Source: Sphyrna mokarran (taxonomy: Eukaryota). From it: DNA of 64,000 bases. The notes beneath the pieces were generated by a model. That model saw nothing but the letters and a program-made list of their open reading frames with translations. It was not told the origin of the DNA and ran no database searches. Positions 5,121 to 64,000 of this stretch are shown here, in pieces. Each line of letters starts with the position of its first letter. The first letter of the stretch is position 1. The stretch lies in assembly GCA_024679065.1 (NCBI GenBank), contig JAGIQG010000022.1:17918001-17982000 (forward strand). The letters are read 5' to 3'. A program made the position numbers and the translations under genes.

Positions 5121-7252
5121 TCTCCCTCATTAGAAAGTAATCTAGAAACTAAGTGTGCATTGATCAAATGTCTGAATATCCTAAAATTGGATGACATCTA
5201 TTAGGTATTTGCTAAGTTTCATTGTATTGACAGTTATCCTTCAATTCTGAATCACATGTTTACATCTTGCTGAATCTGCTGAGATGGTTGGTATCAAAAC
5301 AAAAATGTGACATGTAATATAGAAAAACAAGAACACACCAGTCAGACATGACTGGGTTTTTATTTGTAATTGTGTAGAGTTGTAACCTCATTAAACAGGC
5401 ACTACAACAGGCTAACTTTAAGTTTGAGGAGCTCATGTATTTTTCCTGAGATTGAGAATATCCAATCGTACCTCACTCAGCCAAGAAATAAGACAGAATT
5501 TTGCTTTTACCTTATCCAGAGAAAGTTCCCTCAGGCCAATGAAGCTACACTCAATTCGGGGAAAAAGCCTTCACTGAGAATCTTTTGAGGGAATAGACCA
5601 CCTGTACAGAGATGGCTCATTTAATTTAGTTTTGGTTCCTCTGGTAACACAGTGCTTGTTGCCATGCATTTACATCTGCCATTTATTAAATGGTTGGTTC
5701 CACAACTTTCCCCCTCAAACTCTGTGGAAGATGTAGAAGTTCTGTTTTGAAATGTAACCTATAGGTTTTTCGCACAGATATGTTGTGGGAACTATCTTGT
5801 GCACTAAGAAAGGCAAACAAGATCTTGAGGATATAATATATCTTTTCCAATAAGACATTTTTCATTCACTAGGGCATGGAAAGATTATACTTTATTGTAT
5901 TTGATGATTCAGTAAGTTAGTTGCAAAGTTAAGAAAAAATTTTGTAAGTTGAATGCATTGGAAAATATTCATTTTTAATACTCCCTTTTGATCCAGCTTA
6001 TGGTCATGCCAGCTGAAGAACCTCGAGTTTGGTTTAGATATTTTTCAATTTGCTTTCATCCTTTTTATCATTGGTACACTTAGCTTTGTATCCTATAACA
6101 GGCATTATTTTTGTCTTCAATTTTTGAATGCCGGAGTATTTATTTATTGTGCAAGGTCTTTGTTGTTTTTGTTGTAACATGATTGAAGAAATTGGTGAAC
6201 CTGTCCCCGAAACTTACTGTATATATCTAGTTAATGCTAAATGTTTCAAATTTGAGTGGAACAAAAACATTAAGCTTTTAATTAAAGCAGCTATAACACT
6301 GCAATAACTGCTTAATTCACAATTTGAAAATCTAATTTGATGTGACATGAAATCTAGATTTCTTGAAAATGGAAGAGTCAGTTAATGTAAAATTTATATT
6401 AGTTGCACTTTAATTAGAACTTGAGAGCCGTACAGGTAAGTTGCTGGGTTTTAGTTTTAAGGTATCATTGCTGTAAAGGCTGAGCTATGCATTAAATTGT
6501 ACTTTTCTTTAAAAATTATAATTTATTCTCAACCTACTTCTCTATACTCGTATTTGCTAGAATAGTGATATAATTGAAAGATTTCAGAACACAAATGCAT
6601 TTCTTGGCATATATTGCACATTACACCCAGCCGACATCTGAATCACAGAGAAAAGAATCAAACTAAATTAAAAGACAAAATGGGGCTCAAAGGAAAAAAT
6701 GGTGTGTAATGGGGGAGAGGGGGGACACATGCATGAAAATACAAACAAAAAGTAACAATCTGATTAGGACAAAGGGTTGATGATTGATTTGTCAATTATA
6801 CAGATGCTTTATTTTGTTTTGCTGTGTATGTTGTGAAAATGTTGAACATGATCCACAAATGAAAAGCTACATAAAGTTGCATTGTTGTGGGCTGTGAAGG
6901 TCTCTTGTGGCTTCAGGGAATTAATTTGAAAATATTATATGTATACATGTGTGTGTATGTTGTTTTCAAATCCAAGCATGGTATGTAAAATGCTGATGTT
7001 GAAAGGAATTTTCTAAATTACTTATCCGTTTAGTCAATCAACTGTAATCATTAAATTTTAAATCAATCTTAGATTTTATTTTCCACAAGAAAATTCACAC
7101 CTATTGTACCGAGTGGTGAAGTTTGTAAAGAAATTATCTGATTTCTTAAATTTGAAATTATATGCAAGTGCTATCTTTACATTTTAAGTATTAGTTATTT
7201 GGAAATTTTCTGGGAGGACTGAAATGTATAAAATGTATTATGCAATTGTGTA

Positions 7253-9715
7253 ATAGAACATAGAACACTACAGCACAGAACAGGCCCTTCGGCCTTCGAT
7301 GTTGCGCCGACCAATATAAAAAGCAATGCCCCTCCAAACTAAACCATTCCCTTCTCTTCCATATACTTATCAACTAACCTCTTAAACGCCACCAAACTTG
7401 GCGCATCTACAACTGCTGCAGGCAGGGCATTCCACTCCCGAACCACCCTTTGGGTAAAGAACCTACCTCTGATATCCGTCCTATAACTATCACCCCTTAA
7501 TTTAAAGCTGTGTCCCCTCGTGCTAGCTTTTTCCATCCTAGGAAAAAGGCTATCACTGTCCACCCTATCTAAACCTCTAATCATCTTATATGTTTCGATT
7601 AGGTCCCCTCTTAGCCGCCTCCTTTCTAACGAAAACAACCTCAAATCCCTCAGCCTCTCTTCATAAGACCTGCCCTCCATACCAGGCAACATCCTGGTAA
7701 ACCTCCTCTGTACCCTCTCCAATGCCTCCACATCTTTCTTATAATGCGGGGACCAGAACTGCACACAATACTCCAAGTGCGGCCGCACTAGAGTTTTGTA
7801 CAGTTGCAACATGACGTTGCGGCTCCGAAATTCAATCCCCCTACCAATAAAAGCTAAGACTCCATATGCCTTCTTAACAACCTTCTCGACTTGACTGCCT
7901 ACTTTCAGGGATCTATGCACATACACACCAAGATCCCTCTGTTCATCAAGACTACTAAGAATCCTACCATTAGCCCTATACTCTACACATTTATTATTTC
8001 TGCCATAGTGCATTACCTCACACTTTTCCACATTAAACTCCATTTGCCACCTCTCGGCCCAGCTCTGCAACTTGTCCAAGTCCCTCTGCAAACTATAACA
8101 CCCCTCTTCACTATCTACCACTCCACCGACTTTAGTGTCATCTGCAAATTTACTAATCCATCCTTCAATACCCTCATCCAGATCATTTATAAAAATTACA
8201 AACAGCAGGGGCCCCAAAACAGACCCCTGAGGTACACCACTTGTCACCGAACTCCACGATGAATATCTCCCATCAACCACCACCCTCTGTCTTCTATCTG
8301 CTAGCCAATTCCTAACCCAATTAGCTAAATCACCCTCTATCCCATACATCTGCATTTTCTGCAGAAGTCTTCCATGGGCCACCTTATCAAACGCCTTACT
8401 AAAGTCCATATATACCACATCAACCGCCTTACCCCCATCCACCTCTTTAGTCACTTTTTCAAAAAACTCAATGAGGTTAGTAAGGCACGACCTACCCTTC
8501 ACAAAACCATGCTGACTATCCCCAATCAATTCATTTCTCTCTAAATAACTATAAATCCTATCCCTAGTTATTCTCTCCAATACTTTGCCCACAACAGAAG
8601 TAAGACTCACTGGCCTATAATTCCCTGGAAGGTCTCTCTTCCCCTTCTTGAACAATGGGACCACATTCGCTATCCTCCAGTCCTCCGGAACCACACCTGT
8701 AACCAACGAGGACCTGAAGATCAGAGCCAGAGGCTCTGCAATCGCCTCCCTTGCCTCTCAGAGAATCCTAGGGTAAATCCCGTCCGGCCCAGGGGACTTA
8801 TCCAACTTCAAACCCTCGAGAATATCCAGCACATCCTCCCTATCTACTTCAATACTTTCCAGTTTGCTACCCTGTAACTCAGTGTTCTCCATAACTACAT
8901 TTACATCACCCTGCGTGAATACCGAAGAGAAATATTTATTCAGTGCCTCTCCAATCTCTTCAGGCTCCACGCACAACTTCCCACTGCTGTCTATGACTGG
9001 CCCTAATCTTGTCCTAACCAATCTTCTATTCTTAACATATCTAAAGAAAGGATTAAGGAGAATCCTAAAGCTATCAGCCAAAGTCTTCTCGTGTCCCCTC
9101 TTAGCTCTCCTCAATTCACTCTTTAGCTCCCTCCTGGCTAATCTATAGCTATCCATTGCACTAACTGAGCCTTCAAGCCTCATCCTGACATAAGCCTCCT
9201 TTTCCCTTTTAACCAGCAAATCAACTTTTTTCGTACACCAAGGTTCTCTTACTCGACCATTTCCTCCTTGCCTGACAGGGACATACTTATCAAGGACTCG
9301 CAGCAGCTGCTCCTTGAATAAGCTCCACATTCCAGATGTTCCCAGTCCCTGTAGTTTCCTAGTCCAATCTATGCACCCTAATTCTCTCCTGATGGCCTCA
9401 TAATTACCCTTCCCCCAGCTATAACTACTGCCCCCAGCTTCATGCCTATCCCTATCCATCACTAAGGTGAATGTAACCGAATTGTGGTCACTATCACCAA
9501 AATGTTCACTAACTTCCAAGCCTAACACCTGGTCTGGCTCATTGCCCAGCACCAAATCCAATGTAGCCTCACCTCTAGTTGGCCTATCTACATACTGAGT
9601 CAAAAAACCTTCCTGCACACTTTGTACGAAAACTGACCCCTCTAACGAGCTAGAGCTATAGCTATTCCAATCAATATTAGTAAAGTTAAAGTCCCCCATA
9701 ACAATTACCCTATTA
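7253..9715 (-). mobile_element. Young CR1/HER1-type LINE, copy A (main part): endonuclease C-terminal half plus reverse transcriptase and 3' UTR
   Basis: ORFs 8758..9786 and 7339..8706 are one frame broken by a single TGG>TGA at 8758-8760. Motifs [25 protein letters not shown]. Tail (tagaaca)n at the left end. Confidence 0.96.
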
Positions 9716-11210
9716 GAACATAGAACAATACAGCACAGAACAGGCCCTTCGGCCTTCGATGTTGTGCCGACCAAAATAAAAAGCAATGCCCCTCCAAACT
9801 AAACCATTCTTCTCTTCCATATACTTATCAATTAACCTCTTAAACGCCACCAAACTTGGCGCATCTACAACAGCTGCAGGCGGGCATTCCACTCCCTAAT
9901 CACTCTTTGAGTAAAGAACCTACCTCTGATACGTCCTATAACTCATACCCCTTAATTTAAAGCTGTGTCCCTCGTGCTAGCTTTCTCCATCCTAGGAAAA
10001 AGGCTATCACTGTCCACCCTATCTAAACCTCTAATCATCTTATATGCTTCAATAAGATCCCCTCTTAGCCGCCTCCTTTCTAACGAAAACAACCTCAAAT
10101 CCTTCAACCTCTCTTCATAGGACCTGCCCTCCATACCAGGCAACATCCTGGTAAACCTCCTCTGTACCCTCTCCAATGCCTCCACATCTTTCTTATAATG
10201 TGGGGACCAGAACTGCACACAATACTCCAAGTGCGGCCGCACTAGAGTTTTGTACAGTTGCAACATGATGCTGCGACTCCTAAATTCAATCCCCCTACCA
10301 ATAAAAGCTAAGACTCCATATGCCTTCTTAACAACTTTATCCACTTGACTGCGTACTTTCAGGGATCTATTGACACATACACCAAGATCCTTCTGTTCCT
10401 CAACACTATTAAGAGCCCTACCATTAGCCCTATACTCTACACATTTATTGTTCCTGCCAAAGTGCATTACCTCCCACTTTTCCACATTAACCTCCATTTG
10501 CCACCTCTCGGCCCAGCTCTGCAACTTGTCCAAGTCACTCTGTAAACTAAAACACCCCTCTTCACTATCTACCACACCACCAACTTTAGTATCATCTGCA
10601 AATTTACTGATCCATCCCCAATACCCTCATCCAGATCATTTATAAAAATTACAAACAGCAGGGGCCCCAAAACAGACCCCTGAGGCACACCACTCGTCAC
10701 CGAACTCCACGATGAATATCTCCCATCAACCACCACCCTCTGTCTTCTATCTGCCAGCCAATTCCTAATCCAATTAGCTAAATCACCCTCTATTCCACAC
10801 ATCTGCATTTTCTGTAGAAGTCTTCCATGGGCCACCTTATCAAAAGCCTTACTAAAGTCCATATATACTACATCAACCGCCTTACCCCCATCCACCTCTC
10901 TGGTCACTTTCTCAAAAAACTCAATGAGGTTAGTGAGGCATGACCTACCCTTCACGAAACCATGCTGACTATCCCCAATCAATTCATTTCTCTCTAAATA
11001 ACTATAAATCCTATCCCTAATAATTCTCTCCAATACCTTGCCCACAACAGAAGTAAGACTCACTGGCCTATAATTCCCAGGAAGGTCTCTCTTCCCCTTC
11101 TTAAACAATGGGACCACATTCGCTGTCCTCCGGAACCACACCCGTAACCAACGAGGACCTGAAGATCAGAGCCAGAGGCTCTGCAATCTCCTCTCTTGCC
11201 TCCCAGAGAA
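9713..11210 (-). mobile_element. Young CR1-type LINE, copy B, 5'-truncated, nested inside copy A
   Basis: Own tail tagaacatagaaca at 9714. RT ORFs 9952..10575 and 10569..11141 with small indels. Nearly identical to the copy at 27841. Confidence 0.95.
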
Positions 11211-11307
11211 GGAGGCAAGCCTTCTGCAGTTTTCGCACACTTTGTACGAAAACTGACCCCTCTACAAACCTTTTAAACTTTAAAAGTAAAATTAAGAAGT
11301 TCCTTAA

Positions 11308-11462
11308 TAGTTTCACTCCTGACCAGAATTGACTTGGCAATCCTTTCCTCAACCTCTCTAGAACTTTTAGGAGGTCTATAAAAGACTCCCAACAGGGTGA
11401 CCTCTCCTTTCCTGTTTCTAATCTCAGCCCATACTACCTCAACAGACAAGTCCTCATCAAAC
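11308..11462 (-). mobile_element. 5' remainder of CR1 copy A (endonuclease domain)
   Basis: Minus-strand translation FDEDLSVEVVWAEIRNRKGEVTLLGVFYRPPKSSREVEERIAKSILVRSE joins in frame to (T)NRVIVMGDFN at ~9715. Confidence 0.88.
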
Positions 11463-12149
11463 TTCTATGACATTCCATTTTTAACAATTCATCCATTTTT
11501 AATGGATGACATTCCATTTTTAACGCAGAATATATTTGTGATGCAATTTTTGCCCCAACCCTGCCACGTGCAAGTACGTTGCTGAAACATTGAGACAGCA
11601 ATGTGACAAATTAAAAAGTTGTTGTTTAAAAGGAAGTTGAAACCAAGATGTCACCTATGTATGGCAACAGATGTGGCTTCGTACAGAAATGCAAACATAC
11701 TTTAGAAAGGAAGTATGGACCTAAAGTAATTGAATGTGCTGATCTTATCCAATTACTAGCTTCCATTATTACTTGAACATGCAGTTTACAACAGATCGTT
11801 TAAACTATGCATTTGCCTTTGGAAGAGAGCAAAATCTGCAATATTAATGTGCAAGACTTGGAATATATACTACAAACCTTTTAAACTTTAAAAGTAAAAT
11901 TAAGAAGTTCCTTAATAGTCAATAGCATTTTAATGATGGAATAATGCTAGTCATTATCAAAACTTTTATTAGTATTTCATACTAGTTCTCAGAACCGAGC
12001 ATATTTTCTTCACACTTCACCTGTTAAGCTCTGATTTTGAGGTGATTCAATGCTATTAGTGATGTTAGGAAATAATTTAGTTACAGGGTAATGGAAAAGT
12101 TGCCAAATATATACATTTTCAAACTTCTAAAGATTTGGCTTGCACTTTA

Positions 12150-12622
12150 GATTAAGTTTGTTTATTAGTGTCACAGGTAGACTCACATTAAGACTGCAGT
12201 CAAGTTACTGTGGGCAGCACGGTGGCACAGTGGTCTGCACTGCTGCCTGAGTGCCAGGGACCTGGCTTCAATTCTCGGCTTGGGTCATTATCTATGCAGA
12301 GTTGTACATTTTCTTTGTATATGTGGGTTATCCAAACAGGTACTGGAGGTGGTGATGGGATTTTCACAATAACTTCATTGCAGTGTTAATGTAAGCTTAG
12401 TTGTGATAATTGTAAAAGAAATTCTGAAAATCTCATAGTCGCCATACTCCAATGCCTGTTTGGGTATACTGAGGGAGAATTTAGCATAGCCAATGCACTT
12501 AATCAGCACGTTTTTCAGACTGTTGGAGGAAACAGACATGAGACCATGCAGTAGTCCGCACAGACAGTGACCAAAGTTAGGAATTGAACCTGGGGCAGTG
12601 AGGCAGCAGTGCTAACCAGTGC
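12150..12622. mobile_element. HE1/V-SINE-like SINE (+, ~12212-12417) nested in an opposite-strand copy of the same family
   Basis: tRNA-like head gggcagcacggtggcacagtgg...ttcaattc interrupts aagttactgtg|aaaatc, which is contiguous in the copies at 18415 and 58510. Confidence 0.75.
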
Positions 12623-12658: not shown

Positions 12659-12799
12659 TTGGACACTTTTACAGCAAGCTTCAATCACTGTTGCAAATGT
12701 TGCCTACATTACTTCAAAACGTGAGCCATTGGACACTTTTACAGCAAGCTTCAATCACTGTTGCAAATGTTGCCTACATTACTTCAAAACGTGAGCCAT
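12659..12799. repeat. Perfect 70-bp tandem duplication
   Basis: ttggacacttttacagcaagc...caaaacgtgagcca at 12659-12728 and 12729-12798. Confidence 0.95.
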
Positions 12800-15660: not shown

Positions 15661-16184
15661 TGTGCTTAGCTAACTTCCTCAAAGTCCCAATTGTACGTGT
15701 CTCCACCAGACTCTCGGGTAATGCATTCCAGATCCTAACCATTCACAGATAAAAATGTTTTCTTTCTGTTGCCATTTTTTCTTTGGACAATCACCTCAAT
15801 TTAGTATTTTCTGACCTTTGACCCTTATGCCAATGGAAAACTTCCTCTCATCTATTCTGACTGGACCTTCCATGATTTCTTTCAAACGTCCTCTCAATCA
15901 TCTACAAGGAAAGCAGTTCCAACTTCAATTTATCCCCATAACTGAAGTTCCTCACCCTGGGACCATTGTTGTAGACCTTTTCTGCGCCCTGTCTTCAGCC
16001 GTCACATCCTCCTTACAGTGCAGTGCCTAGAATCGGACGCACACTCCAGTAGAGGCAGGTGTATTAATGTTCATAACGTTTATTTTGTATCCTCTGCTTC
16101 TATTTATAAATCTCAGTATCCCGAATGCCATTTTAAACACTTTCGGATGCTTTCCTACATTGTGATTTGTGCACATATACCCCC

Positions 16185-16546
16185 GTACTTGTACTTACCT
16201 GGCAGGGGTGAAACCATCATGCATGGGACGTGGCTAGTCATTGCATGTGGGGTGTGCTGACACCTGTGATTGTGGGTTTCCTTGAGTAGTGTAAGTGAAT
16301 AGGGTAGCCAGTGAGGTTAAACAAAGGTTTAACCTGATGCAATTTTTCAAAGCCATCTCAGCCTTTTGGCTAATGTGAAGCATTAGATCAAACCTGAGAT
16401 GAGGTGTAAGGCCTCATCCTGCCAGCTTGGATTTTGTTTGATTAAACCCAAGGTCAGATGTGTATCCCTGTCTTGTCAGCTTGGATCTAGTTTGTCCCTC
16501 ATGCAAGGATTCTGGACTTGATTAGCTTTTTTGATTAGGAATAAAG
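16185..16546 (+). mobile_element. U1/U2 snRNA-derived chimeric insertion (SINEU-like candidate)
   Basis: tacttacctggcagggg (16192-16208) equals U1 nt 2-18, followed by cattgca and gtgtgctgacacctgtgatt (U1 stem-loops II/III). tctcagccttttggctaa (~16356-16373) is the U2 5' end. Flanked by tacccc at 16178 and 16547. Confidence 0.75.
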
Positions 16547-18414
16547 TACCCCAGATGTCTTTCTCCTGGCAACTCTTTGATATTGTATTGTTTTTCCTTG
16601 TTTTGCCAAGCACAATATACTACTTCAAATTTATCCATTTTACCAGTGTTCTCTTGAAGTTTATCAAGATTCTTGTCATAGCTCAGCATACTGCTAAGTT
16701 TTGTCATTTGAAAATTTTGAAATTGTGCCTTACACACCTAAGTCTAGATCATAATATATATCAAGGAAAGCAGTGGTCAAGTACTTATATCTTCCTCCTG
16801 TCTCAAAGCAGCTGTTCCCACTACTCCCCATAAGCTTCGCATTCCTCAGCATGTCCATGCTGCCACTTCCACTTTTTATTCCAGGGGCATCAAATTTGCT
16901 GGCACATCTATTATGTTATATTTTATAACTTTTTTGAAAATCCATATATAACAAATTAGCCATCAACTTGAGTAATAATCTACTTGAATATAATTTGCCT
17001 TTAGTAATTCTTTGTTGTTTTTCCTTAAGTTAATGCTTAATTGTCCAAGTGACAATTTTTTTTCACTCGTCTAAAAGCTCTTACATCACTGAGGTTAAAC
17101 AGACTGACTTATCATTATTGCGTTTATCTTTAGACCCTTTTTTTAAACAATTTTCTAGTCATCTGGCATTACTCTTGTGTCTAAAGAAGATTGGAAAATT
17201 ATGGGCAGCACCAGTCCCTCAACAATTTTCACCCTTCCTTCCCATCCAGTCCTGGAGATTTAACAGCTTGAAATACAGACTGCTTTTCTAAAACCATCTC
17301 AATTTTTTTTAGCCTATCCAAGATCTCAACTACCTCCTTTTGCCATGACCTGATTTCTATCATTTCCCTCAATTAAAGGCAGATGCAAACTACTCGTTTA
17401 GTCCCCTGTACCTCTACCCAATCAGCTCATTCCTCCTCTTAGTAGCCTTTTACTTTTTGTGCTTGCAGACGACTTGGATTCCCCTTTTGTTATCTCCCAG
17501 TTTATTTTCACCTTTCTCTTTTGCCTCTCTGATTTCCTTTTTCATTCCCATCTGAGATTTTTATATGCAGTGTTATTCTTGTTTGTACACTCGATCTGAA
17601 ATCTGATGTGTCCCTATTTTCTGCTTTATTTTATTCTCCATTTCTTTGCTATCCAGTTTTCGTTGCAGTACATGAGACAGTACTTCTCCTGTACCTGAAC
17701 CATCTCCTTATCATTCCTCCATTATAGTTATGCCAGAATCTTTCTTTCTAACTCATCTTTCATTCTCTTATCCTACAGAATAAATATCTGCCACTTCCTA
17801 TGCCTTTAGCTTCAACAAAATCATCTGTCCTCTACATCAGCTCTTTTCTGTCCTTATAGATGCTGCCAGACCTGCTGAGATCTTTGAGCGTTTTCTCTTT
17901 TGGTACAGGTCCATTCTTAATAGAAATTAGCCCTCTGCCAATTAAATATTTTTACCCCAGAATGCTGCTTTATCTTTTTGATAGCTAATCTGATCCAATA
18001 ATACCAGGATCACTGTTGGCTAAACATTCTTATGCTAACATTTAGTGCATTTGAACCCACCTCCTCCAGAAAGCAGTGGGAGCTGGGTAACTTAATTTAT
18101 TCACGATTGAGTTGGATGGATTTTTTTACAGACGAGAGAGCCAAGGACTGTGGTGTGCAAACAAGAAAATGGAGTAGAAACTACAGTGAGATCAGCTATG
18201 ATTTTATCAAATGACCGAGCAGGCTTGAAGGGCCAAATGTTCCTATGAACTTTTATCCCCTAACACCCGAAACAATAATGCTTCCTTTCTTGTAAATAAA
18301 AATCTTTGAACATGTTTCAGGTACTTTTTACATTCTTTGGCATTTAGACTATTATCCCAGCCTGTATTAGGATCATTGAAGTGCTCCATTATCACTACTA
18401 TATAGATTTTGATA

Positions 18415-18750
18415 TTTAAAGTTTAGTTATTAGTCCCAAGTAGGCTTACATTAACACTGCAATGAAATACTGTGAAAATCCCCTAGTCGCCACATTACGG
18501 CACATGTTCTTGTACACTGAAGGAGAATTTAGCATGGCCAACGCACCTAATCAGCATGTCTTTGGATTGTGGGAGGAAACTGGCAATTTCACTAGTGCTT
18601 GATAACACACTCTGCTGCCTCCTTTTAACCTGGGTTAGATTCCCAGCTTGGGTCACTGTCTGTGTGGAGTCTGCACGTTTCTCCCAGGTGTTCAGGTTTC
18701 CCCCCTCAGTTTAAAAGACACGCTGGTTAGATGCACTGGTTATGCTAATA
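18415..18750. mobile_element. Two HE1/V-SINE-like fragments in opposite orientation
   Basis: Minus copy tttaaagtttagttattagt...ggaggaaac (~18415-18585), plus copy ttgggtcactgtctgtgtggagt...atgctaa (~18630-18750). Confidence 0.7.
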
Positions 18751-22533: not shown

Positions 22534-22692
<159 letters not shown>

Positions 22693-25150: not shown

Positions 25151-26052
25151 TTTACTGGAGGCAGTGCAGGTTCATGGTATGCAAATGTCAGGAAAAGGCT
25201 GTCCTCTTCCCAACAAGGTCATCCTATCTTTTAACAGTGTTACTGTGTAGTGATGGCAACAAATCTATGCACAGCAATGTGATGATGGTCAATATTAGTT
25301 AAAATAACAAGTCAGCTCTTTTTTAATAGTGCCATTAGACCTTTTAAATGGCATTGCCGCTAGTGCATTGTTTCCATCAGGTACCATCAAATGTTAGCTT
25401 CACCAAGTGGAAGTTTAGACTTTCAGTAGCAACTTCTTGCCTCTCTAAAACCAAGTCAATCAAGATATAAAAAGTCTGAAATGAGAGTGTGGACATATTG
25501 TTGAACTTTAAGATAATATCTGCCACCATTATCCAAATATTTAATAATATTTGTCAAAGAGTGGGGTCTAAAAAGAAGCTTTGAATATATAGTGACATTA
25601 TTGTAATCTTCACTCTTAATTGGGAGTGAAGGCTTAGCAGTTTTGTTAGCCAGTATGCAGATTATTCTGACACAGTGGGCAGGATTTTATGGGATGCTGC
25701 AGTTCCCTCCCCACCTTATCAAAATGTTCGGGGATAATAGGTAACTGGCTGTCTTGACAACTGCCTTGCAGCAATTTAATGCTGGGAACAGCTTTAATTG
25801 CTTTAGAGCAAGACTTTCATCCCTTTTACACAAGGATGCTCCATCTTATCGGTCGGGCTGTTGGATGGATAGCAACTCCCTAATCCCAGTAACAGTGACT
25901 TCAGGGAGTCCAGATAATTCTGGAGTCATTGGTCTCCGAGATCAGGAAGAGTTGAGCGAGGGTGCAGGTTAAAAGATAGGATTACCTTATTGGGAAGAGG
26001 ACAGCCTTTTCCTGACATTTGCATACCATGAACCTGCACTGCCTCCAGTAAA
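25151..26052. repeat. 85-bp inverted duplication (25151-25235 vs 25968-26052)
   Basis: Reverse complements with 2 mismatches by manual alignment. Confidence 0.92.
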
Positions 26053-27840: not shown

Positions 27841-29498
27841 ACATAGAACATAGAACATAGAACAATACAGCACAGAACAGGCCCTTCGGCCTTCGATGTT
27901 GTGCCGACCAAAATAAAAAGCAATGCCCCTCCTAACTAAACCATTCCCTTCTCATCCATATACTTATCAACTAACCTCTTAAACGCCACCAAACTTGGCG
28001 CATCTACAACAGCTGCAGGCAGGGCATTCCACTCCCTAATCACTCTTTGAGTAAAGAACCTACCTCTGATATCCGTCCTATAACTCATACCCCTTAATTT
28101 AAAGCTGTGTCCCCTCGTGCTAGCTTTCTCCATCCTAGGAAAAAGGCTATCACTGTCCACCCTATCTAAACCTCTAATCATCTTATATGCTTCAATAAGA
28201 TCCCCTCTTAGCCGCCTCCTTTCTAACGAAAACAACCTCAAATCCTTCAACCTCTCTTCATAGGACCTGCCCTCCATACCAGGCAACATCCTGGTAAACC
28301 TCCTCTGTACCCTCTCCAATGCCTCCACATCTTTCTTATAATGTGGGGACCAGAACTGCACACAATACTCCAAGTGCGGCCGCACTAGAGTTTTGTACAG
28401 TTGCAACATGATGCTGCGGCTCCTAAATTCAATCCCCCTACCAATAAAAGCTAAGACTCCATATGCCTTCTTAACAACTTTATCCACTTGACTGCCTACT
28501 TTCAGGATCTATTGACACATACACCAAGATCCTTCTGTTCCTCAACACTATTAAGAGCCCTACCATTAGCCCTATACTCTACACATTTATTGTTCCTGCC
28601 AAAGTGCATTACCTCACACTTTTCCACATTAAACTCCATTTGCCACCTCTCGGCCCAGCTCTGCAACTTGTCCAAGTCACTCTGTAAACTAAAACACCCC
28701 TCTTCACTATCTACCACACCACCAACTTTAGTATCATCTGCAAATTTACTGATCCATCCCTCAATACCCTCATCCAGATCATTTATAAAAATTACAAACA
28801 GCAGGGGCCCCAAAACAGACCCCTGAGGCACACCACTCGTCACCGAACTCCACGATGAATATCTCCCATCAACCACCACCCTCTGTCTTCTATCTGCCAG
28901 CCAATTCCTAATCCAATTAGCTAAATCACCCTCTATTCCACACATCTGCATTTTCTGTAGAAGTCTTCCATGGGCCACCTTATCAAAAGCCTTACTAAAG
29001 TCCATATATACTACATCAACCGCCTTACCCCCATCCACCTCTCTGGTCACTTTCTCAAAAAACTCAATGAGGTTAGTAAGGCATGACCTACCCTTCACGA
29101 AACCATGCTGACTATCCCCAATCAATTCATTTCTCTCTAAATAACTATAAATCCTATCCCTAATAATTCTCTCCAATACCTTGCCCACAACAGAAGTAAG
29201 ACTCACTGGCCTATAATTCCCTGGAAGGTCTCTCTTCCCCTTCTTAAACAATGGGACCACATTCGCTATCCTCCAGTCCTCCGGAACCACACCCGTAACC
29301 AACGAGGACCTGAAGATCAGAGCCAGAGGCTCTGCAATCTCCTCTCTTGCCTCCCAGAGAATCCTAGGGTAAATCCCGTCCGGCCCAGGGGACTTATCCA
29401 ACTTCAAACCCTCGAGAATTTCTAACACATCCTCCCTATCTACTACAATACTCCCCAATTTGCAACCCTGTACCTCAGTGCTCTCCACAGCTACATTT
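27841..29498 (-). mobile_element. Young CR1-type LINE, copy C, 5'-truncated
   Basis: ORFs 28502..29548 and 27936..28487 separated by a 1-bp deletion near 28505. Tail (catagaa)3. Confidence 0.96.
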
Positions 29499-30198
29499 CC
29501 AGCACTCTGCATAGTTGGTGGTGATGTTTCAAAAGCAACTTGCAACATATATGCGGTTATGTTAATAGCAGAGCTGGAAGATCTGTATAAAGGAGATGAA
29601 AGACTAAGAGGAAAAAAAGTGAAACAAAAGGAGGCATTTCTAAAATTTCAGAAAATATTGCCACATTGATCGATCTTTAAGTTGAATGAGATCAGCTTTT
29701 TATAAAAATAAAATGCACAAGTTTTACTACTTTTTAACTTGGGTTTTAACTCAAATTAATAGAGTAATGCAACTTCAAAACTTAGCTAAGGCCTTCTAAT
29801 AGTGCTGTCTGTTCATGATTTATAGTTGAATCCAATAATACATCAAAAATTACTTGATTAGATCAACCAAAGTTAACAGTGCATAGACTTGACACAATCA
29901 GTGTATCTTTATCAGCAGATATGCTAACTACTACCCCCTCATGCACAAGTTACCAGTGATATATGGGCATGATTTTATTTTAAGGTAAGATACAAATTCA
30001 AACCACCTGTTTATAACTGCCTCTTCCTGCAACACTTATGTTAATATTCATAATAAGATTATCCTCCTTTTTGGGAAGGCAATGGCATAACAGTATTGTT
30101 GCTGGACTAGTAATCCAGAGAACCGGGTTCAAATTCCACAATAGCAAATGGTGAAATTTGAATTCAGTAAAAATCTGGAGTTAAAAGCGCAATGATGA

Positions 30199-32928: not shown

Positions 32929-33234
32929 ATCATAGAAACCCTATAGTGCAGAAAGATGCCATTTGGCCTATTGAGTCTGCACTGACCATAATCCTACCCA
33001 GGCCCTACCCCCACATCCCTACACTTAGATCTACTAATCCCTCTAACCTATGCGTCTCAGGACACTAAGGGGCAATTTTAGCATGGCCAGTCACCTAACC
33101 CGCACATCTTTGGAAAGAAACTGGAGTATGCAGACACAGGGAGAATGTGCAAACCCTACACAGACAGTGACACAAGCTCGGAATCAAACGCAGGTCCCTG
33201 GCTCTGTGAAGCAGCAGTGCTAACTACTGTGCCA
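32929..33234 (-). mobile_element. HE1-like SINE
   Basis: catagaaaccctatagtgcagaa...aattttagcatggcc...gcagcagtgctaactactgtgcca. Embedded in old CR1 fragments (~32130-33950). Confidence 0.8.
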
Positions 33235-37391: not shown

Positions 37392-37662
37392 TGTGGCACA
37401 TGGTTAGCACTGTGTCTCCTGACACCAGGGACCAGGGTTTGGTTCCAGCCTTGGGAGACTATGTGGAGTTTGTATATTCTCCTTGTGTCTGTGTGGGTTT
37501 CCTCCAAATGCTCCGGTTTTCTCCACAGTACAAACATGTGCGGATTAGGTTAATTGGCCATGCTAAATTGCACCTTAATGTCAGGGGGCTAGCAGAGTAA
37601 ATATATGGAGTTAAAGGGATAGGGTGTGGGTGACTTCCTTCGCGCCGTAGGTATTCTGTGAT
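37392..37662 (+). mobile_element. HE1-like SINE
   Basis: gtggcacatggttagcactg...gtgggtttcctcc...ttggccatgctaaattg. Confidence 0.8.
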
Positions 37663-48750: not shown

Positions 48751-49998
48751 GGGTAGGTCGTGCCTTACTAACCTTATTGAGTTTTTTGAGAAAGTGACCA
48801 AAGAGTTGGATGGGGGTAAGGCAGTTGATGTGGTGTATATATGGACTTTAGTAAGGTGTTCGATAAGGTGGCCCATGGAAGGCTTCTGCAGAAAATGCAG
48901 ATATATGGGATTGAGGGTGATTTAGCTAATTGGATTAGGAATTGGCTAGCAGATAGAAGACAGAGGGTGGTGGTTGATGGGAGATATTCATCGTGGAGTT
49001 CGGTTACAAGTGGTGTACCTCAGGGATCTGTTTTGGGGCCCCTGCTGTTTGTAATTTTTATAAATGATCTGGATGAGGGTATTGAAGGATGGATTAGTAA
49101 ATTTGCAGATGACACCAAAGTTGGAGGAGTGGTAGATAGTGAAGAGGGGTGTTCTAGTTTGCAGAGAGACTTGGACAAGTTGCAGAGCTGGGCCGAGAGG
49201 TGGCAAATGGAGTTTAATGTGGAAAAGTGAGAGGTAATTCACTTTGGAAGGAATAACAAATGTGTAGAGTATAGGGCTAATGGTAGGACTCTTAATAGTG
49301 TTGATGAACAGCGGGATCTTGGTGTATGTGTGCATAGATCCCTGAAAGTTGGCAATCAAGTCGATAAAGTTGTTAAGAAGGTATATGGAGTCTTAACTTT
49401 TATTGGTAGGGGGATTGAATTTCGGAGCTGCAATGTCATGTTACAACTGTACAAAACTCTAGTGCGGCCGCACTTGGAGTATTGTGTGCAGTTCTGGTCC
49501 CCGCATTATAAGAAAGATGTGGAGGCATTGGAGAGGGTACAGAGGAGGTTTACCAGGATGTTGCCTGGTATGGAGGGCAGGTCTTATGAAGAGAGGCTGA
49601 GGGATTTGAGGTTGTTTTCGTTGGAAGGAAGGTGGCTAAGAGGAGACCTTATTGAAACATATAAGATGATTAGAGGTTTAGATAGGGTGGACAGTGATAG
49701 CCTTTTTCCTAGGATGGAGAAAGCTAGCACGAGGGGACATAGCTTTAAATTAAGGGGTGGTGGTTTAGGACGGATGTCAGAGGTAGGTTCTTTACCCAGA
49801 GGGTGGTAAGGGTATGGAATGCCTTGCCTGCGTCAGTTGTAGATGCGCCAAGTTTGGTGGCGTTTAAGAGGTTAGTAGATAAGTTTATGGATGAAAAGGG
49901 AATGGTTTAGGTTAGAGGGTCACTGCTTGTTCCTAATTGGTCGGCGCAACATCGAGGGCCGAAGGGCCTGTTCTGCACTGTAATGTTCTATGTTCTAT
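48751..49998 (+). mobile_element. Young CR1-type LINE, copy H (same subfamily as A/B/C), inserted into a palindromic repeat
   Basis: ORFs 48841..49230 and 49330..49809. Tail tgttctatgttctat. tctatac at 48742-48748 and 49994-50000. Flanks tgctggaaattctcac and gtgagtatttccagca are inverted arms. Confidence 0.95.
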
Positions 49999-50957: not shown

Positions 50958-52099
50958 GTAAGTCTCTACAGTGGAACACTGAATCATGATGACAATATTT
51001 TAGTAAGTAGCATTTGGGCTGATACTTCAATACCAAGTTTGTGTTAATGAAAGCTCAACATGTGGTTCAGAGGCAGCATAATTAGAGGCTGCCAGCTGTA
51101 TAGCATGTGGTATCAATACTGATCTAAAACACATGTCAAAGTTAAATTGTTGATTTACAGATTTAGCAAGGAAAATATTGGAGATTGAAAATAGGTTTTT
51201 ATTTCAAATACATTGCATACTAATGCATTTTTTGATGTCTCTCAAATACAGTTATGTCGCTAAAAAATTGCAATGACAATTTTCCAATAAATTAAAAGTA
51301 CCCAGATTGAATTTATTCTGAAAGCACAGGAATTATAAGTGTCTTCTGTTTGTCCAATTCCACTGAAAATGTGGATCCTAATGATGTAAGAATTATTTAG
51401 CAAATGAAAGAAACAAAAGCCCAAAGCGTGGAAGTTGTACAATGTTCAAACAACTTTATATGCTGGGTGAAAGTTATCCGAAAGTTTGCTGTAACCATAC
51501 AGTGGTTCTCATTTATCATTATGAGCTGTAGATTACCATAGAAATGCGGTAAAATAAGATTTAAGCATAGGTAAAAAGTTTTATTTTGATATTTACATGA
51601 GAAACAGCTTCTGGTATGAGATTGTATTTGATATAAATAAGATGAATACTTGATCCCAAGTTGAGCTTCTGATCATGTTCACACCATCATAAAAACTATC
51701 TATTTCTACCTTTGTAACTTTGCTTCACGTTCAGTAGATCTGCTGCTGAAACACTCATTCATGCTTGGGCAGATTGGCCATGCTAAATTCTCCCTTAGTG
51801 TACCTGAACAGGCAGAGTATGGCAGTTAGAGGATTTTCACAGTAACTTAATTGCAGTGTTAATATAAGCTAACTTGTAATAAATAAACTTATTACTCTAG
51901 ATTTGACTATTCCAGTGTATTCCCGACTAGCCTCCAAATTTATATTTTCTGTGAACTTAAGGTCATCAGAAATTCCGCTGTTCATGTCTTCACTCGTACC
52001 ATGTATAATAGGATCTGCAAAACTTTTTGGGCTTAATTTTTTGTTTCTGTCATGAAGCATTAGCTTTACCAGACCATTGCGCTTAATAAAAAAAAATGT

Positions 52100-52658: not shown

Positions 52659-53280
52659 TAAGAAGCCTTTCTTCAGGCATGCACAATCATTTGTCTTTAA
52701 TGTATTATTTATAGTCACAAGCAGGAATCATCACCAGAAGCAATTTGACTATCATTTGCAGTTAGAACCATCACCTTGGGGTGCATTCCGGTAATCCCCT
52801 GAATAATGCCATTAGAAGCTCCTTACTCCTGTAAGGCCGCATATGGTGACAGGGTTGGAGGGAGATACCAGACATTGTAGCCCAAAATATTCTCAGTGGC
52901 AGAAAAAGCAAGGGAATACAGTGGCTCAATGTCTCTGAAGGTGGAAGAAGGCTCCAGCCATTATGTGATCCAGGTCATTGTGGTTTGATATTCTCCTGAG
53001 TCTGATCACCAACGCATCAAGATTTTGTGGACAGTGACAGTCTCTCAAGGTCCCCTTATTAAACAAAACCATGTCCAGGCTTCTACCAGCGTTTAAAATG
53101 AGCTGGCACAGAGGAAAAGAAAAAAAAATTGCTTAAAAAAAGTTATCAAATATGCAATATGTAAGCTATAAAAATAAAACTTTTAAAGAATATTTAAACC
53201 TTCAAACCTAAACCTCTTTGTCACAATAAATCTGGATAAGATTACACAGCTTTCACTGTTATTTTAAAAATTTTTGATCC

Positions 53281-53465
53281 ATTCTAAGTTACAAAGCCAA
53301 TGCAGAAAGTGGACTGGGCAGACACAAAATCCATTTTGCTTGCTTCAAAAAACATTCAAGTTGAATCCAACTTGTGGTCCCCACAAGAGACAGACAAAAT
53401 CCAATCTGACAAGCAAAAGCATTGTACCCTGTCTGACACTTGATCTTAGCCAAAAGGTCAAGAAA
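53281..53465 (-). pseudogene. U2 snRNA-derived repeat, near full length, with altered branch-point recognition region
   Basis: 53436-53457 reverse complement ccttttggctaagatcaagtgt equals U2 nt 13-34. Further down: ttttttgaagca (Sm-site region) and gtccact...gcattggctttgta (U2 3' stem-loops). Confidence 0.8.
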
Positions 53466-53646
53466 CTCAACCTAAATACACGTGGTGTACGTATGGTGAG
53501 GTGCTGAACAGTGCAATTGCAGGTTAGATTCTTGGGAATGCTAACTTAAATAGCTCCACCTGAGCCAAAGGTAGAGGTGTTATGTTGGTATCAATACTGC
53601 TAAGACGACAAATTATCTGAGCTTTACACTCCTTCCCAGTGTCATC

Positions 53647-55336: not shown

Positions 55337-57536
55337 GTGAGTACACATTGAGTCCTGAGATTTGTATAGAAACAGATGTTTCTAAATCATAAACAACAGC
55401 CAGTTTAAGAAATACTCTTCAGTAGATGAAGGTTTATCCCTAATCCCGAGTGTTTAAACAGATTATCCTAAAATGCACTGCATAATCTTTAAATAGTATT
55501 TGTATATTTCTGAAGATGCTAAATATTGAAATAGCTGTATTTGTACCAAGAAGATTACTATCTTTGAAAATCTTGCTGGGTGTCATTTAGGACAATTTCT
55601 AAAAACATTCAATTAATTCAGACTAATGACAATGTAATAAATGCTGGAGTTTGGTCTACTGGTAATCAATATAGAATCCCAAAGTAAATGTTTTGTTTAA
55701 CTATTAACACCAGTTGTATAAAAACCTTAATGTGCATATTTTTTGCTTTCGTTTTGGTTGTCTACGAGATTAGTTGATTTAAGTTCGGCAATGGCACCTT
55801 CAATTTCAAACTTTGTGCAGTGCACTTCCATAATAAATAGCTGTATTACCTTTGAATTATAAGCCATTTATGATCAGTGTCCTTTGCAGTGATTGTTACA
55901 ATATTGTACCATATTCAATACTGTACTGATACAAAATATTTCAAATTCAAATCCCTCTTGTAGTCAGTTCATGCAGCTTCCATTGCGTCTCATCTAAGTC
56001 TATGCATCTATATATGTCCTTCCTTTTATGTATAAAAGTCTGTTTTCTGGCACATGGCATTCATATCCCCAGAAAACAGCACATCATTATAGAACAAAAT
56101 ATCTTCTTATAAAGAGAAAAAATGCATCCAAAGTTTAAAGTAACTACACTTTCCCTTTAATTGACCTCAGCAGCATATTAGTAGCTATAGATACCTGGAT
56201 TTGTTGATTAGAACAGACCTTAAATGACCTCAGCAGTTATCAGCTAAATATTACAACAGTGCTTCAACCCAGGATTATCCATGCACAATGTCACATCCAT
56301 TCACTGATACTAAATCAAATTTTTACATCACAATTTTGCCCAAATATCAAATTTTGTTCATCTAAGTCATTTTAGGATTTCTGTTTTTTAGAATCATTAT
56401 TGTTTTGCATTTATTGGATATTATCCTCCATGTTTTGCTGTAATTTAGTTTAATTCCTAAGTCAGACTTTTTTTTATCAGAGATTGTTTCCAGAGCCACT
56501 TGTTAGTAGTTTGATTATATAACTCTTAACTTTCTCCTTTTGGGGAAAAAAATCTGATGGGAAAGGCATTTAAATAATTTTCATAAGCAGATGATATTGT
56601 AATTGTTTGGTATGAAAGCTATGCATAGAGAACTATATGAACAAATTTTATAGTTCCTTAAAATATCTGTGGGGTATAATATGGACAGATAAATATTTTT
56701 ATTCCCACTTAGTAAAAAAACACAACTTGTATTTTTTAAGCTGATAATATTAAATCCATAACTTCTACTTTAGCTTATAAATTAAGTGGCAATTTCCTCA
56801 GGTTCACCTGAATCATCTCATGTTTGTATAGTTAATGTATATCAACAAACCTATAATGCAGCCATGTGACAATTTGTCTCTAATTTTTCAGTGATGGATA
56901 GTGAATAATAGAAACAATCAGAATAGTCATACAAATGCATACAAATTATATCGCTAAGTTATATTTGGGGAACAAATTTATGATCCTAGATTAAACCATT
57001 AACTTCAGCTGGATCAATCCTAATATCCTGATTAATTCTTCTGGGAGATTTCAACAAATGATTCATTGTTCATCAGTGTGTCCAAGTAATTGCCGAATAA
57101 TGTTTCGGCTTGCTTTTTCTTGCACCAATTTTCTTATTGACTTTGCAATGTACTGTATCGGTACCTTCCATTATCATGTTCAGATGTATTAAATTTAAGA
57201 TGGCTTTGGTTTAAACATTCTTTGTACAGTAAAATATTCTTCTTTCTTGAAGATAATTCTTTTATTTTGTGGTCTAGAAAATGAGGGAGGAGCATGTAGA
57301 GCAACAAAAAACATTTGCTGTTTGCTAAGGGTAAATAAGAATTATGCAATAGATCACATTACAATGCCTACATGCAATACCCTCATGTCTTTCCAGTAAA
57401 AAAAAGTATAAATGGTGCCATTGATCTATTGAGTCTTCAAATTATGAACATGTTAAATCTTGTGATCTATCACTTGCTGGTTTAATTGTTAAATGTTGAA
57501 AATGAAAACACTAGTTTTCTGCAGTGGTTGGGAAAA

Positions 57537-58228
57537 TAGAACATTACTGCGCAGTACAGGCCCTTCGGCCCTCGATGTTGCGCCGGCCAGTGGACCCTCT
57601 AACCTAAACTATTCCAATATCATCCATATGCCTATCCACCAAACATTTGAATGCCCCCAAAGTAGGCGAGTCCACAACTGCTGCAGGCAGGGCATTCCAC
57701 GCCCTCACCACCCTCTGTGTGAAGAACCTGCCTCTGACATCCGTCCTATAACTACCACCTCTTAATTTAAAGTTATGTCCCCTCCTGTTGGTCATCACCA
57801 TCCGAGGAAAAAGGCTCTCACTATCCACCCTATCCAATCCCTTGATCATCTTATACGCCTCAATTAGGTCACCGCGTAACCTTCTTCTCTCTAATGAAAA
57901 TAACCTCAGGTCCCTCAGCCTTTCCTCATAAGGCCTTCCCACCATACCAGGCAACATCCTGGTAAACCTCCTCTGCACCCTTTCCAATGCGTCCACATCT
58001 TTCTTATAATGCGGCGACCAGAACTGTACGCAATACTCCAAGTGTGGCCGCACCAGAGTTTTGTACAGTTGTAACATAACCTCACGGCTCCTAAATTCAA
58101 CCCGTCTACCAATAAAAGCTAACACACCGTACGCCTTCTTAACAACTTTATCAACCTGGGTGGCAACTTTCAAAGAGCTACGTACTTGTACCCCAAGATC
58201 CCTCTGCTCGACAACAGTATTAAGAATA
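57537..58228 (-). mobile_element. Young CR1-type LINE 3' fragment, copy I
   Basis: Open ORF 57604..58173 (RPHLEYCVQFWSP...RRLRGDLIE). Tail tagaaca. Confidence 0.95.
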
Positions 58229-58509: not shown

Positions 58510-58805
58510 TGTTTTTAAACTTTAAACTTTAAAGCTTAATAAGCTTAAATTAACCCTGCAATGAAGTTGCTGTGAAAATCCCTTAGTCACCACACTCCGG
58601 CACCTGTTTGGGTATGCTGAACGTGAATTTAGCATGGCCAGTGCACCTAATCAGCACGTCTTTCAGACTGGGAGAAAATCGGAGCACCTGAGAGAAACCA
58701 TGCAGACATGGTCAGAACATACAAACTCTGCACAGACAGTGGCCTAAGCTGGGAATTGAACCTGGGTTCCAAGCACTGAGAGGCAGCAATGATGACCACT
58801 ATGAG
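58510..58805 (-). mobile_element. HE1/V-SINE-like SINE (taaactt-type tail); a + strand 3' fragment of this family lies at ~51767-51892
   Basis: ctgcaatgaagttgctgtgaaaatccc...aatttagcatggcc...gggaattgaacctggg. Confidence 0.8.
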
Positions 58806-63702: not shown

Positions 63703-64000
63703 AACGTAGTGGTTAGCATTGCGGCCTCACAGCATCAGGGCCCTTGTCCAAAAAAAATGATGCAGTCTACATTTCAGTTTTGGGTGACTGTGTGGATTTT
63801 GTGCATTCTCCCCGTGTCTGCGAGAGTTTCCTCCGAATGCACTGGTTTCCTTCCATAGTCCAAAGATATGCAAATTAGGTGGTTTGGCCATGCTAAATGC
63901 CTCTTAATGTCCGAAATGTGTAGGTTAGATGGATTAACTGTTGTAAATGTGGGGTATGGCAGGAATGAGGACATGGATAGAGAAGTTCTGTGTAGATTTG
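63703..64000 (+). mobile_element. HE1-like SINE running off the window
   Basis: gtggttagcattgcggcctcacagc...ttctccccgtgtctgcg...ggccatgctaaat. Confidence 0.8.

Follow-up and report, generated by a model that had tools for sequence, protein, structure and literature searches.

A U1–U4–U2 element in Sphyrna mokarran and the likely SINEU-like family of cartilaginous fish to which it belongs

The sequence analysed here is a 64,000-nucleotide (nt) stretch of the Sphyrna mokarran genome (assembly GCA_024679065.1, contig JAGIQG010000022.1, positions 17,918,001 to 17,982,000; hereafter the window). Its main subject is an element derived from small nuclear RNAs (snRNAs) that interrupts an old long interspersed element (LINE) of the CR1 type. 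The insert is 363 nt long between its target duplications (16184–16546), forms an element of ~360 bases that is non-coding and without coding homology, and splits the reading frame of CR1 open reading frame 2 (ORF2). With the insert deleted in silico, a tblastn match to CR1 ORF2 ran through the junction over amino acids 222–359 (E = 9.5e-14); with the insert left in, the match shrank to amino acids 279–359 (E = 3.4e-9). The joined flanks also align through the junction to four CR1 copies elsewhere in the window. Because CR1 aligns continuously across the emptied site, the ends of the target duplication are fixed, and both the split CR1 and the bounding TACCCC words are as described in the first-pass annotation, an earlier reading of the same DNA. 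A 6-nt repeat of this kind arises by chance with a probability of 3e-4 at a fixed placement and of 0.08 when 15 × 15 sliding placements are allowed. The insert lies on the plus strand and the CR1 on the minus strand, so it is not part of that CR1's transcript. No terminal inverted repeats were seen when the sequence was compared with itself. The parts of the element, its site and a relative in the same window are listed in Table 1.

Table 1. Parts of the snRNA-derived element, its insertion site and a second family locus (window coordinates)
Feature	Position	Strand	Basis or remark
Host CR1 remnant, left flank (3' part of ORF2)	15666–16183	-	tblastn and nucleotide alignment across the empty site
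Left target-site duplication, TACCCC	16178–16183	+	Ends set by CR1 continuity
5' extension of 8 nt, preceding the U1 piece	16184–16191	+	Three relatives read G at 16188
U1-derived head, U1 nt 2–136	16192–16307	+	86/110 aligned positions against the fish U1 of L017, z 10.4
U4-derived piece, U4 nt 23–47 (5' stem-loop kink-turn)	16304–16328	+	Ungapped comparison by eye with human U4
Perfect 9-bp hairpin on the decayed U4 piece, this copy only	16314–16335	+	3/300 shuffles
Spacer with T5 run	16329–16355	+	Within the deepest-covered bins
First U2 start, U2 nt about 7–34 (stem-loop I), ending inside the branch-point-reading sequence	16356–16383	+	20/24 against fish U2
Module 1, derived repeat of U2 nt about 20–62, branch-point sequence altered, stem IIa-like	16385–16438	+	22/35, ungapped
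Module 2, second derived repeat of the same U2 segment	16439–16492	+
U2 stem IIb to Sm-site region	16493–16534	+	Part of the 57/84 alignment
3' end, A-rich, 12 nt, without poly(A) tail	16535–16546	+
Right target-site duplication, TACCCC	16547–16552	+
Host CR1 remnant, right flank (upstream part of ORF2)	16553–17075	-	Same alignments as for the left flank
Near-full-length but diverged U2 that carries the family's derived segment behind nt 34 and runs into U2 stem-loop III	53268–53469	-	Rfam U2

Contigs from four organisms show that the element belongs to a real multi-copy family whose members are dispersed, diverged and number in the hundreds or more. Contigs of runs X1–X4 were aligned to the locus at 80% likeness; these are 4 of the 23 listed runs, one of the four containing 56% of the sampled words and X5–X23, with small shares, being left uncounted. 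Results for single contigs, joints and loose ends in X1–X4 are those among the rows listed. The numbers aligned were 1503, 1240, 1276 and 1471, flanking CR1 pieces included, and most contigs were less than 90% alike. Relative to the orthologous contigs, depth over 16315–16384 was 1,032–1,311 in X1, 628–1,196 in X2, 751–808 in X3 and 559–748 in X4, a summed depth that is not a copy number and to which true U1 and U2 genes may add in their own bins. It was 10–43 times the orthologous depth over the U1 head and 37–92 times in the last bin. At 16328 and 16331, which lie outside the U2 piece, the majority letters are carried by 93–105 contigs per run. Non-orthologous contigs listed in three of the four runs span the U1-to-U2 region (X1 record 2, 16194–16369; X2 record 10, 16197–16389; X4 record 26, 16196–16347) and differ by 16–18% from the window copy, and all four runs have joints from 16217 to 16305–16337 that connect the core with the U1 5' end. 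The first-pass annotation had proposed a SINEU-like family, after the snRNA-headed short interspersed elements (SINEs) of crocodilians, to be given up if only one locus had the junction; the junction is kept in these non-orthologous contigs, and such a family in cartilaginous fish is supported by contigs from several organisms.

Other contigs extend for kilobases into unlike flanks (X1 record 3; X3 records 18 and 22). The insertion described here is seen in all four organisms, and the orthologous filled site was recovered at both junctions in X2, X3 and X4, with differences of 9–12% on the 5' side and 4–6% on the 3' side. The insertion therefore predates the split of X2, X3 and X4; divergence in the orthologous copy is about that of its CR1 flank. 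Family copies vary in module number, the joints including one-module forms and forms that repeat the module. At 16301, at least 55–79 contigs per run depart from the alignment into an upstream sequence that is related but not the same, and the most common form of the family differs from the window copy upstream of the U4 piece (before 16301). One listed contig that leaves at 16503 rejoins at 16525. The 64-kb window itself holds one U1-headed copy. No family copies were found in viral contigs (five loci examined, no Rfam match), metagenome contigs (all 10 loci unrelated beyond the motif, one being a true U2), prokaryote assemblies (15 loci, two of them fish snRNA contaminants) or plasmids (three short chance matches).

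The U1 alignment of the head scores 84.2, a value reached by none of 1,000 dinucleotide shuffles, and by none when the first 25 nt are left out. The U1 and U2 references are genuine fish genes that score 166.9 and 168.1 bits with Rfam and are present as contaminants in locus L017. Fish U2 and U1 genes ~315 nt apart lie at L017 355–1017 and L030 314–477, as contaminants in assemblies labelled Cetobacterium. The 5' splice-site arm of U1 is intact, with 17 identical nt; this identity, which the first-pass annotation placed at 16185, is real but lies at 16192–16208, behind the 5' extension. Its other two U1 landmarks were also found: stem-loop II is kept with its U1A loop (16239–16245), and stem-loop III is present in decayed form, with 9 nt missing, and extends to the Sm region. 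Stem-loop I is shortened by about 15 nt, which we take to be the U1-70K loop region, and the alignment is less secure beyond about U1 nt 112. A proposed Infernal search with the Rfam models gave less: U1 sees the head weakly (model 1–116, 11.3 bits, E = 0.46), and U2 was not detected in this copy in scans of 1,801 and 391 nt. Nothing in the window reaches the Rfam gathering level, and weak matches to the small nucleolar RNAs GlsR5, SNORA48 and SNORD41 are at chance level.

The linker between the U1 and U2 parts is, judging from its sequence, a piece of U4, an origin that is new relative to the first-pass annotation. The majority row of X4 just before 16333 (41 contigs, agreement 0.64) matches human U4 nt 23–47 without gaps at 23 of 25 positions, for which 4e-6 is expected by chance when 300,000 placements are allowed. 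The human U4 sequence was taken from PMC13253345 and the stem numbering of the kink-turn from PMC2952850. The two differences (nt 38 and 40) fall in the apical loop, and both stems and the tandem G-A pairs are intact: by eye, the row keeps the C-stem (G26–C28 with G45–C47), the loop A29–U31, the tandem G-A pairs and G34–G35 with C41–C42. In U4, this 5' stem-loop kink-turn binds 15.5K (PMC2952850). The contigs behind the row are not U4 genes, because they run on into the family core. The window copy matches at 19 of 25 positions, four further ones having decayed (30, 42, 43 and 47). No U4 reference locus was present in the sets of 2 and 23 assemblies searched. A reading of the linker as an inverted copy of the U2 5' end was rejected, as it needs three gaps by eye against the ungapped 23 of 25 for U4. 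The end of the U1 piece and the start of the U4 piece share 4 nt (16304–16307), which would fit a switch of templates at a short word common to both. By eye, the U4 piece (16305–16316) and the U2 5' piece (16364–16374) are also partly complementary, and this could have drawn the two RNAs to each other ahead of a template switch. The perfect 9-bp hairpin to which the first-pass annotation drew attention is real in the window copy, but in all four runs the majority has letters at 16328 and 16331 that do not pair; it is therefore a decay product of this copy rather than a family trait, and its importance had been overrated.

U2 is present in the element as three successive starts. None of 1,000 shuffles equals the first, and the majority letters at 16374–16375 are those of U2. 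Module 1 compared with U2 is not significant on its own (82 of 1,000 shuffles); the alignment of the two modules with each other is equalled by none of 1,000, and that of the 3' part, from module 2 onward, with U2 nt about 21–107 (57/84) by 4 of 1,000. For the whole element against U2, the figure is 18 of 1,000. The first piece and the 3' part bear out the earlier assignment of the 3' portion to U2. The modules had been described as two copies of a single pattern, ctNNNcagcttggat; they are indeed related, but only module 2 fits the pattern, module 1 having two bases between ct and the shared decamer. Loose contig ends at 16503 carry letters that close stem IIb in other copies. The element stops, as previously noted, near a T run at the Sm site, a T6 run at 16527–16532 that is Sm-like and lacks the canonical preceding A. 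The branch-point-reading sequence (U2 nt 33–38) is altered in both modules, in the majority rows and at the second locus. An antisense relation of the modules to the U1A or U2 loop was rejected, with z values of at most 1.2.

The element holds one CpG in 362 nt, against 9 in 164 nt of U1 and 11 in 184 nt of U2, and its RNA as a whole folds no better than shuffles (z -1.6). No tRNA gene was found in the window, and no tRNA, 7SL or 5S head on the element, which contains T5 and T6 runs. A B-box-like word at 16387–16395, with T runs on both sides, was rejected; by our own estimate it occurs by chance about once per ten such sequences.

One further locus of the family (53268–53469) came from a tile scan of the window (418 tile-strands). 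It matches Rfam U2 over model positions 1–192 (31.4 bits, E = 1.1e-4), tracks U2 to nt 34 and is from there closer to the element (60/76; 0 of 1,000 shuffles) than to U2 (45/65; 50 of 1,000), and then continues into the U2 3' domain (36/58; 0 of 1,000). For a functional U2 gene, intact nt 33–38, an Sm site and more than 46 bits would be expected; the second locus stays at its 31.4 bits, and the element gives no match. No U1 or U4 head was detectable at this locus, nor was there a clear target duplication, the best 7-nt match being ill-placed. It looks like an earlier or simpler member of the family. It sits antisense in an intron of a TAO-kinase gene. Upstream of it, on the minus strand of 53480–53600, lie one word resembling the U2 5' end and another resembling the U1A/U2 loop; an additional unit of U2 or U1 at this place was not significant (288 and 411 of 1,000 shuffles).

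We consider it probable that the element is an old, decayed copy of a multi-copy U1–U4–U2 family, likely a non-autonomous SINEU-like retroposon of cartilaginous fish for whose copying a LINE reverse transcriptase probably acted in trans. The core would have started as a variant U2 RNA with its branch-point-reading sequence disrupted at nt 34, a stage proposed because the locus at 53268–53469 looks like it. With its branch-point reader disabled, such an RNA could have become a substrate of a LINE reverse transcriptase. The segment behind nt 34 would then have been duplicated to give two modules, and the U4 kink-turn and the U1 5' domain would have joined the 5' end later, most probably through template switches where short words are shared. 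As there is no internal RNA polymerase III promoter, master copies would be transcribed from outside by RNA polymerase II, most simply from a U1 gene promoter, because U1 nt 2 is where the head begins. Reverse transcription would finally take place at a nicked target through a LINE of the Tx1/Keno or L1 type, a likely class of partner by analogy with SINEU and given that nt 38/39 of U2 is the site cut by Keno and Utopia. The first-pass annotation allowed for an origin either independent of the crocodilian SINEU or deeply shared with it; an independent origin is likely and is the half we favour.

Several observations weigh against this explanation. The U1 head is covered far less deeply than the core, and true U1 and U2 genes may inflate depth in their own bins. 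U1-headed copies like the one in the window may be a minority of the family, given the shallow head depth and the 55–79 contigs per run that diverge at 16301. The window copy has no poly(A) tail, whereas all SINEU groups carry one, no LINE with the same 3' end was found within the 64-kb window, CR1 3' ends included, and there is a single readable target duplication in all, the second locus having given none. As for U4, the 23 of 25 figure comes from one listed majority row, the 19 of 25 of the window copy is by itself not significant once a wide search is allowed for (0.14), and Rfam detects no U4 in that copy.

The start of the head at U1 nt 2 is also what a transcript from a U1 promoter would show if a deletion or insertion in a linked cluster of U1, U4 and U2 genes had produced a fused gene at the DNA level, shedding retrocopies (processed pseudogenes) rather than founding a self-propagating SINE. 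U1 and U2 genes do lie about 315 nt apart in fish contig L017, and no internal promoter is evident in the element. However, copies differ in module number and upstream of 16301, so that several master genes would be needed, and a simpler, U2-only relative lies in the same window. No U4 gene stands beside U1 and U2 in either of the two assemblies holding L017 and L030, a count that is uninformative for sharks. A fused gene is on balance unlikely. The segment could also be a fragment, the snRNA-derived 5' head or untranslated region of a longer element, either a Tx1/Keno-type LINE or a non-autonomous one. Many contigs exit the alignment at 16503 and 16301 with shared sequence, heads from U1 or U2 are found on the Tx1-Mar LINEs of crocodilians (PMC4494074), and the Keno/Utopia site at U2 nt 38/39, where reptile Utopia duplicate 20 bp (PMC4640811), is near both the break at nt 34 and the repeat start at nt ~20. 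Yet the copy contains no LINE sequence and is closed by the target duplication 12 nt past the Sm-like run. U2 stem IIb can be recognised in the loose ends at 16503, and one of the listed contigs returns to the alignment at 16525; we regard a fragment as quite improbable.

Selection on a family of functional chimeric or variant snRNA genes, the element being one such gene, would suit the kink-turn that other copies keep, their closure of stem IIb with different letters, the U1 5' arm unchanged over 17 nt and the retention of the insertion in four organisms. It fits poorly with paralogues that are 16–18% different and carry indels, with the loss of CpGs, with an orthologous copy that has diverged about as much as its CR1 flank, with a fold no better than shuffles and with a position inside a dead CR1 between target duplications; we hold it very unlikely. 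The presence of a single U1-headed copy in the window is what a one-off template-switch chimera, or a chance pair of neighbouring snRNA pseudogenes, would leave, and one-off chimeras of this kind are well known in mammals (PMC4494074). That such an event explains the element has next to no probability: it is contradicted by the recurrence of these junctions in non-orthologous contigs of several organisms and by a core that ~100 contigs or more cover in each run.

If the element is, as we favour, a member of a U1–U4–U2 retroposon family, its composition invites a more speculative extension, which we offer tentatively and think rather unlikely. The family may be a spliceosome mimic that has gathered protein-binding handles from three snRNPs, namely the U1A loop, a 15.5K kink-turn, U2 stems and an Sm-like U-run, and has discarded the U1-70K loop and the U2 branch-point reader, using these handles for stabilisation, localisation and handover to a LINE reverse transcriptase without an internal promoter, and having evolved independently of crocodilians. 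If so, the family would be the first retroposon to combine three snRNAs and the first with a U4 kink-turn, and snRNA-headed retroposons would converge on disabling branch-point recognition.

Elsewhere in the window, exons of the TAO-kinase gene lie on the plus strand between 22570 and 54990 (motifs at 22648, 47483, 48117, 50905, 52551 and 54935). Its first coding intron is about 25 kb long, and the element lies upstream of the first TAO-kinase coding exon found. ORF2 of the CR1 copies is 80%, 70% and 66% identical to proteins of Hemiscyllium, Chiloscyllium and Hypanus and about 43–61% identical to bird and turtle proteins among the 120 matches listed, where unnamed or mislabelled entries reach 97% and 74%. 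The named animal matches nearest by identity in that list are thus elasmobranch, which points to a cartilaginous fish, likely a shark, rather than to a crocodilian. A young CR1 family, with copies 91–98% alike, occurs at 7251–11210, 27850–29510 and 48751–49998, and an older copy lies at 57532–58227. The first of these segments contains two copies head to tail. The family shows a 472-amino-acid open ORF2 stretch with reverse transcriptase and an endonuclease stretch. Another short interspersed repeat family, with copies 70–88% alike, occurs at 12190–12618, 18419–18748, 33128–33234, 37443–37608, 51774–51890, 58540–58803 and 63772–63911 and is possibly a tRNA-type shark SINE. An 85-nt inverted repeat (25151–25235 and 25968–26052; 97.6% identity, about 730 nt apart) is a possible non-autonomous DNA transposon. 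An exact 71-nt tandem duplication (12659–12799) and an exact 50-nt direct repeat (11262–11311 and 11870–11919, 608 nt apart) reflect either recent duplication or an assembly artefact.

What appears to be new is a likely independent SINEU-like family with a third snRNA, U4. For SINEU, the manner in which an element lacking an internal promoter is transcribed and passed on is an open question (PMC4494074). A second, likely independent vertebrate family, with its hundreds or more copies found in several species, would make it possible to compare which snRNA modules are retained and which disappear. From the U4 kink-turn one would predict 15.5K binding, and from the recurrent loss of the U2 branch-point reader an avoidance of interference with splicing. 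Shared insertions would be usable as presence/absence markers in shark phylogeny. Current assemblies probably mislabel the family as unknown repeats or snRNA pseudogenes.

SINEU were defined by Kojima (2015), who detected none outside crocodilians and described recurrent 5' addition of snRNA pieces and mobilisation by Tx1-type LINEs, the proposed partners (PMC4494074). The shark element shares with them a U1/U2-derived head, a length below 500 bp, the absence of coding sequence, many copies with a shared structure, internal oligo-T and the lack of a tRNA-type head; it does not share their target preference (it lies in CR1 ORF2, one site only) or crocodilian distribution. It also lacks the tRNA, 7SL or 5S head with internal promoter of a classical SINE. 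Within the available portions of the literature, including PMC5499810, PMC5381603, PMC5786205, PMC7245038 and PMC11979771, we found no snRNA-derived shark SINE or U4-containing SINE; most subscription journals, Repbase Reports and Repbase/Dfam lay outside this search, so a consensus, catalogued or uncharacterised, may exist. The short retroposons SacSINE1 and CmiSINEs of cartilaginous fishes differ in having tRNA-derived heads, Deu or CORE domains and L2 tails (PMC5499810), and that article does not mention snRNA.

Comparison with the SINEU groups is with their published descriptions rather than consensus sequences. SINEU-2, of crocodiles and gharials, is closest in plan: short and non-coding, with 5' U1 followed by 3' U2, internal oligo-T, no RNA polymerase III boxes, variable 5' extensions and short target alterations (PMC4494074). 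SINEU-2 is young and restricted to those lineages, whereas the shark element is old and inserted in CR1; its U1/U2 junction is at nt 53–58, against a U1 head of about 116 nt in the shark element; and it has a poly(A) tail, prefers Mariner-N4_AMi targets and has no U4 piece in the available description, whereas the shark element has a U4 kink-turn and tandem U2 modules (PMC4494074). SINEU-1 shows similar recurrent 5' additions and partial duplications of U1 and U2 pieces but, unlike the shark element, has a non-snRNA 3' half (PMC4494074). SINEU-3 is a U2 broken after the first 32 nt and, from U2 numbering, would also lose the branch-point-reading sequence; there the change is an internal deletion, whereas in the shark element the segment is altered and repeated (PMC4494074). 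Keno, of the Tx1 clade, and Utopia target U2 at nt 38/39, adjoining the family break at nt 34, but they are autonomous, protein-coding and located inside U2 genes, while the shark insert has nothing coding (PMC4640811). Mammalian snRNA retropseudogenes and chimeras resemble the shark element in joining snRNA pieces during reverse transcription, in their target duplications and in being often 3'-truncated and tailless; they are independent one-off events, whereas the shark copies share derived junctions and letters (PMC4494074).
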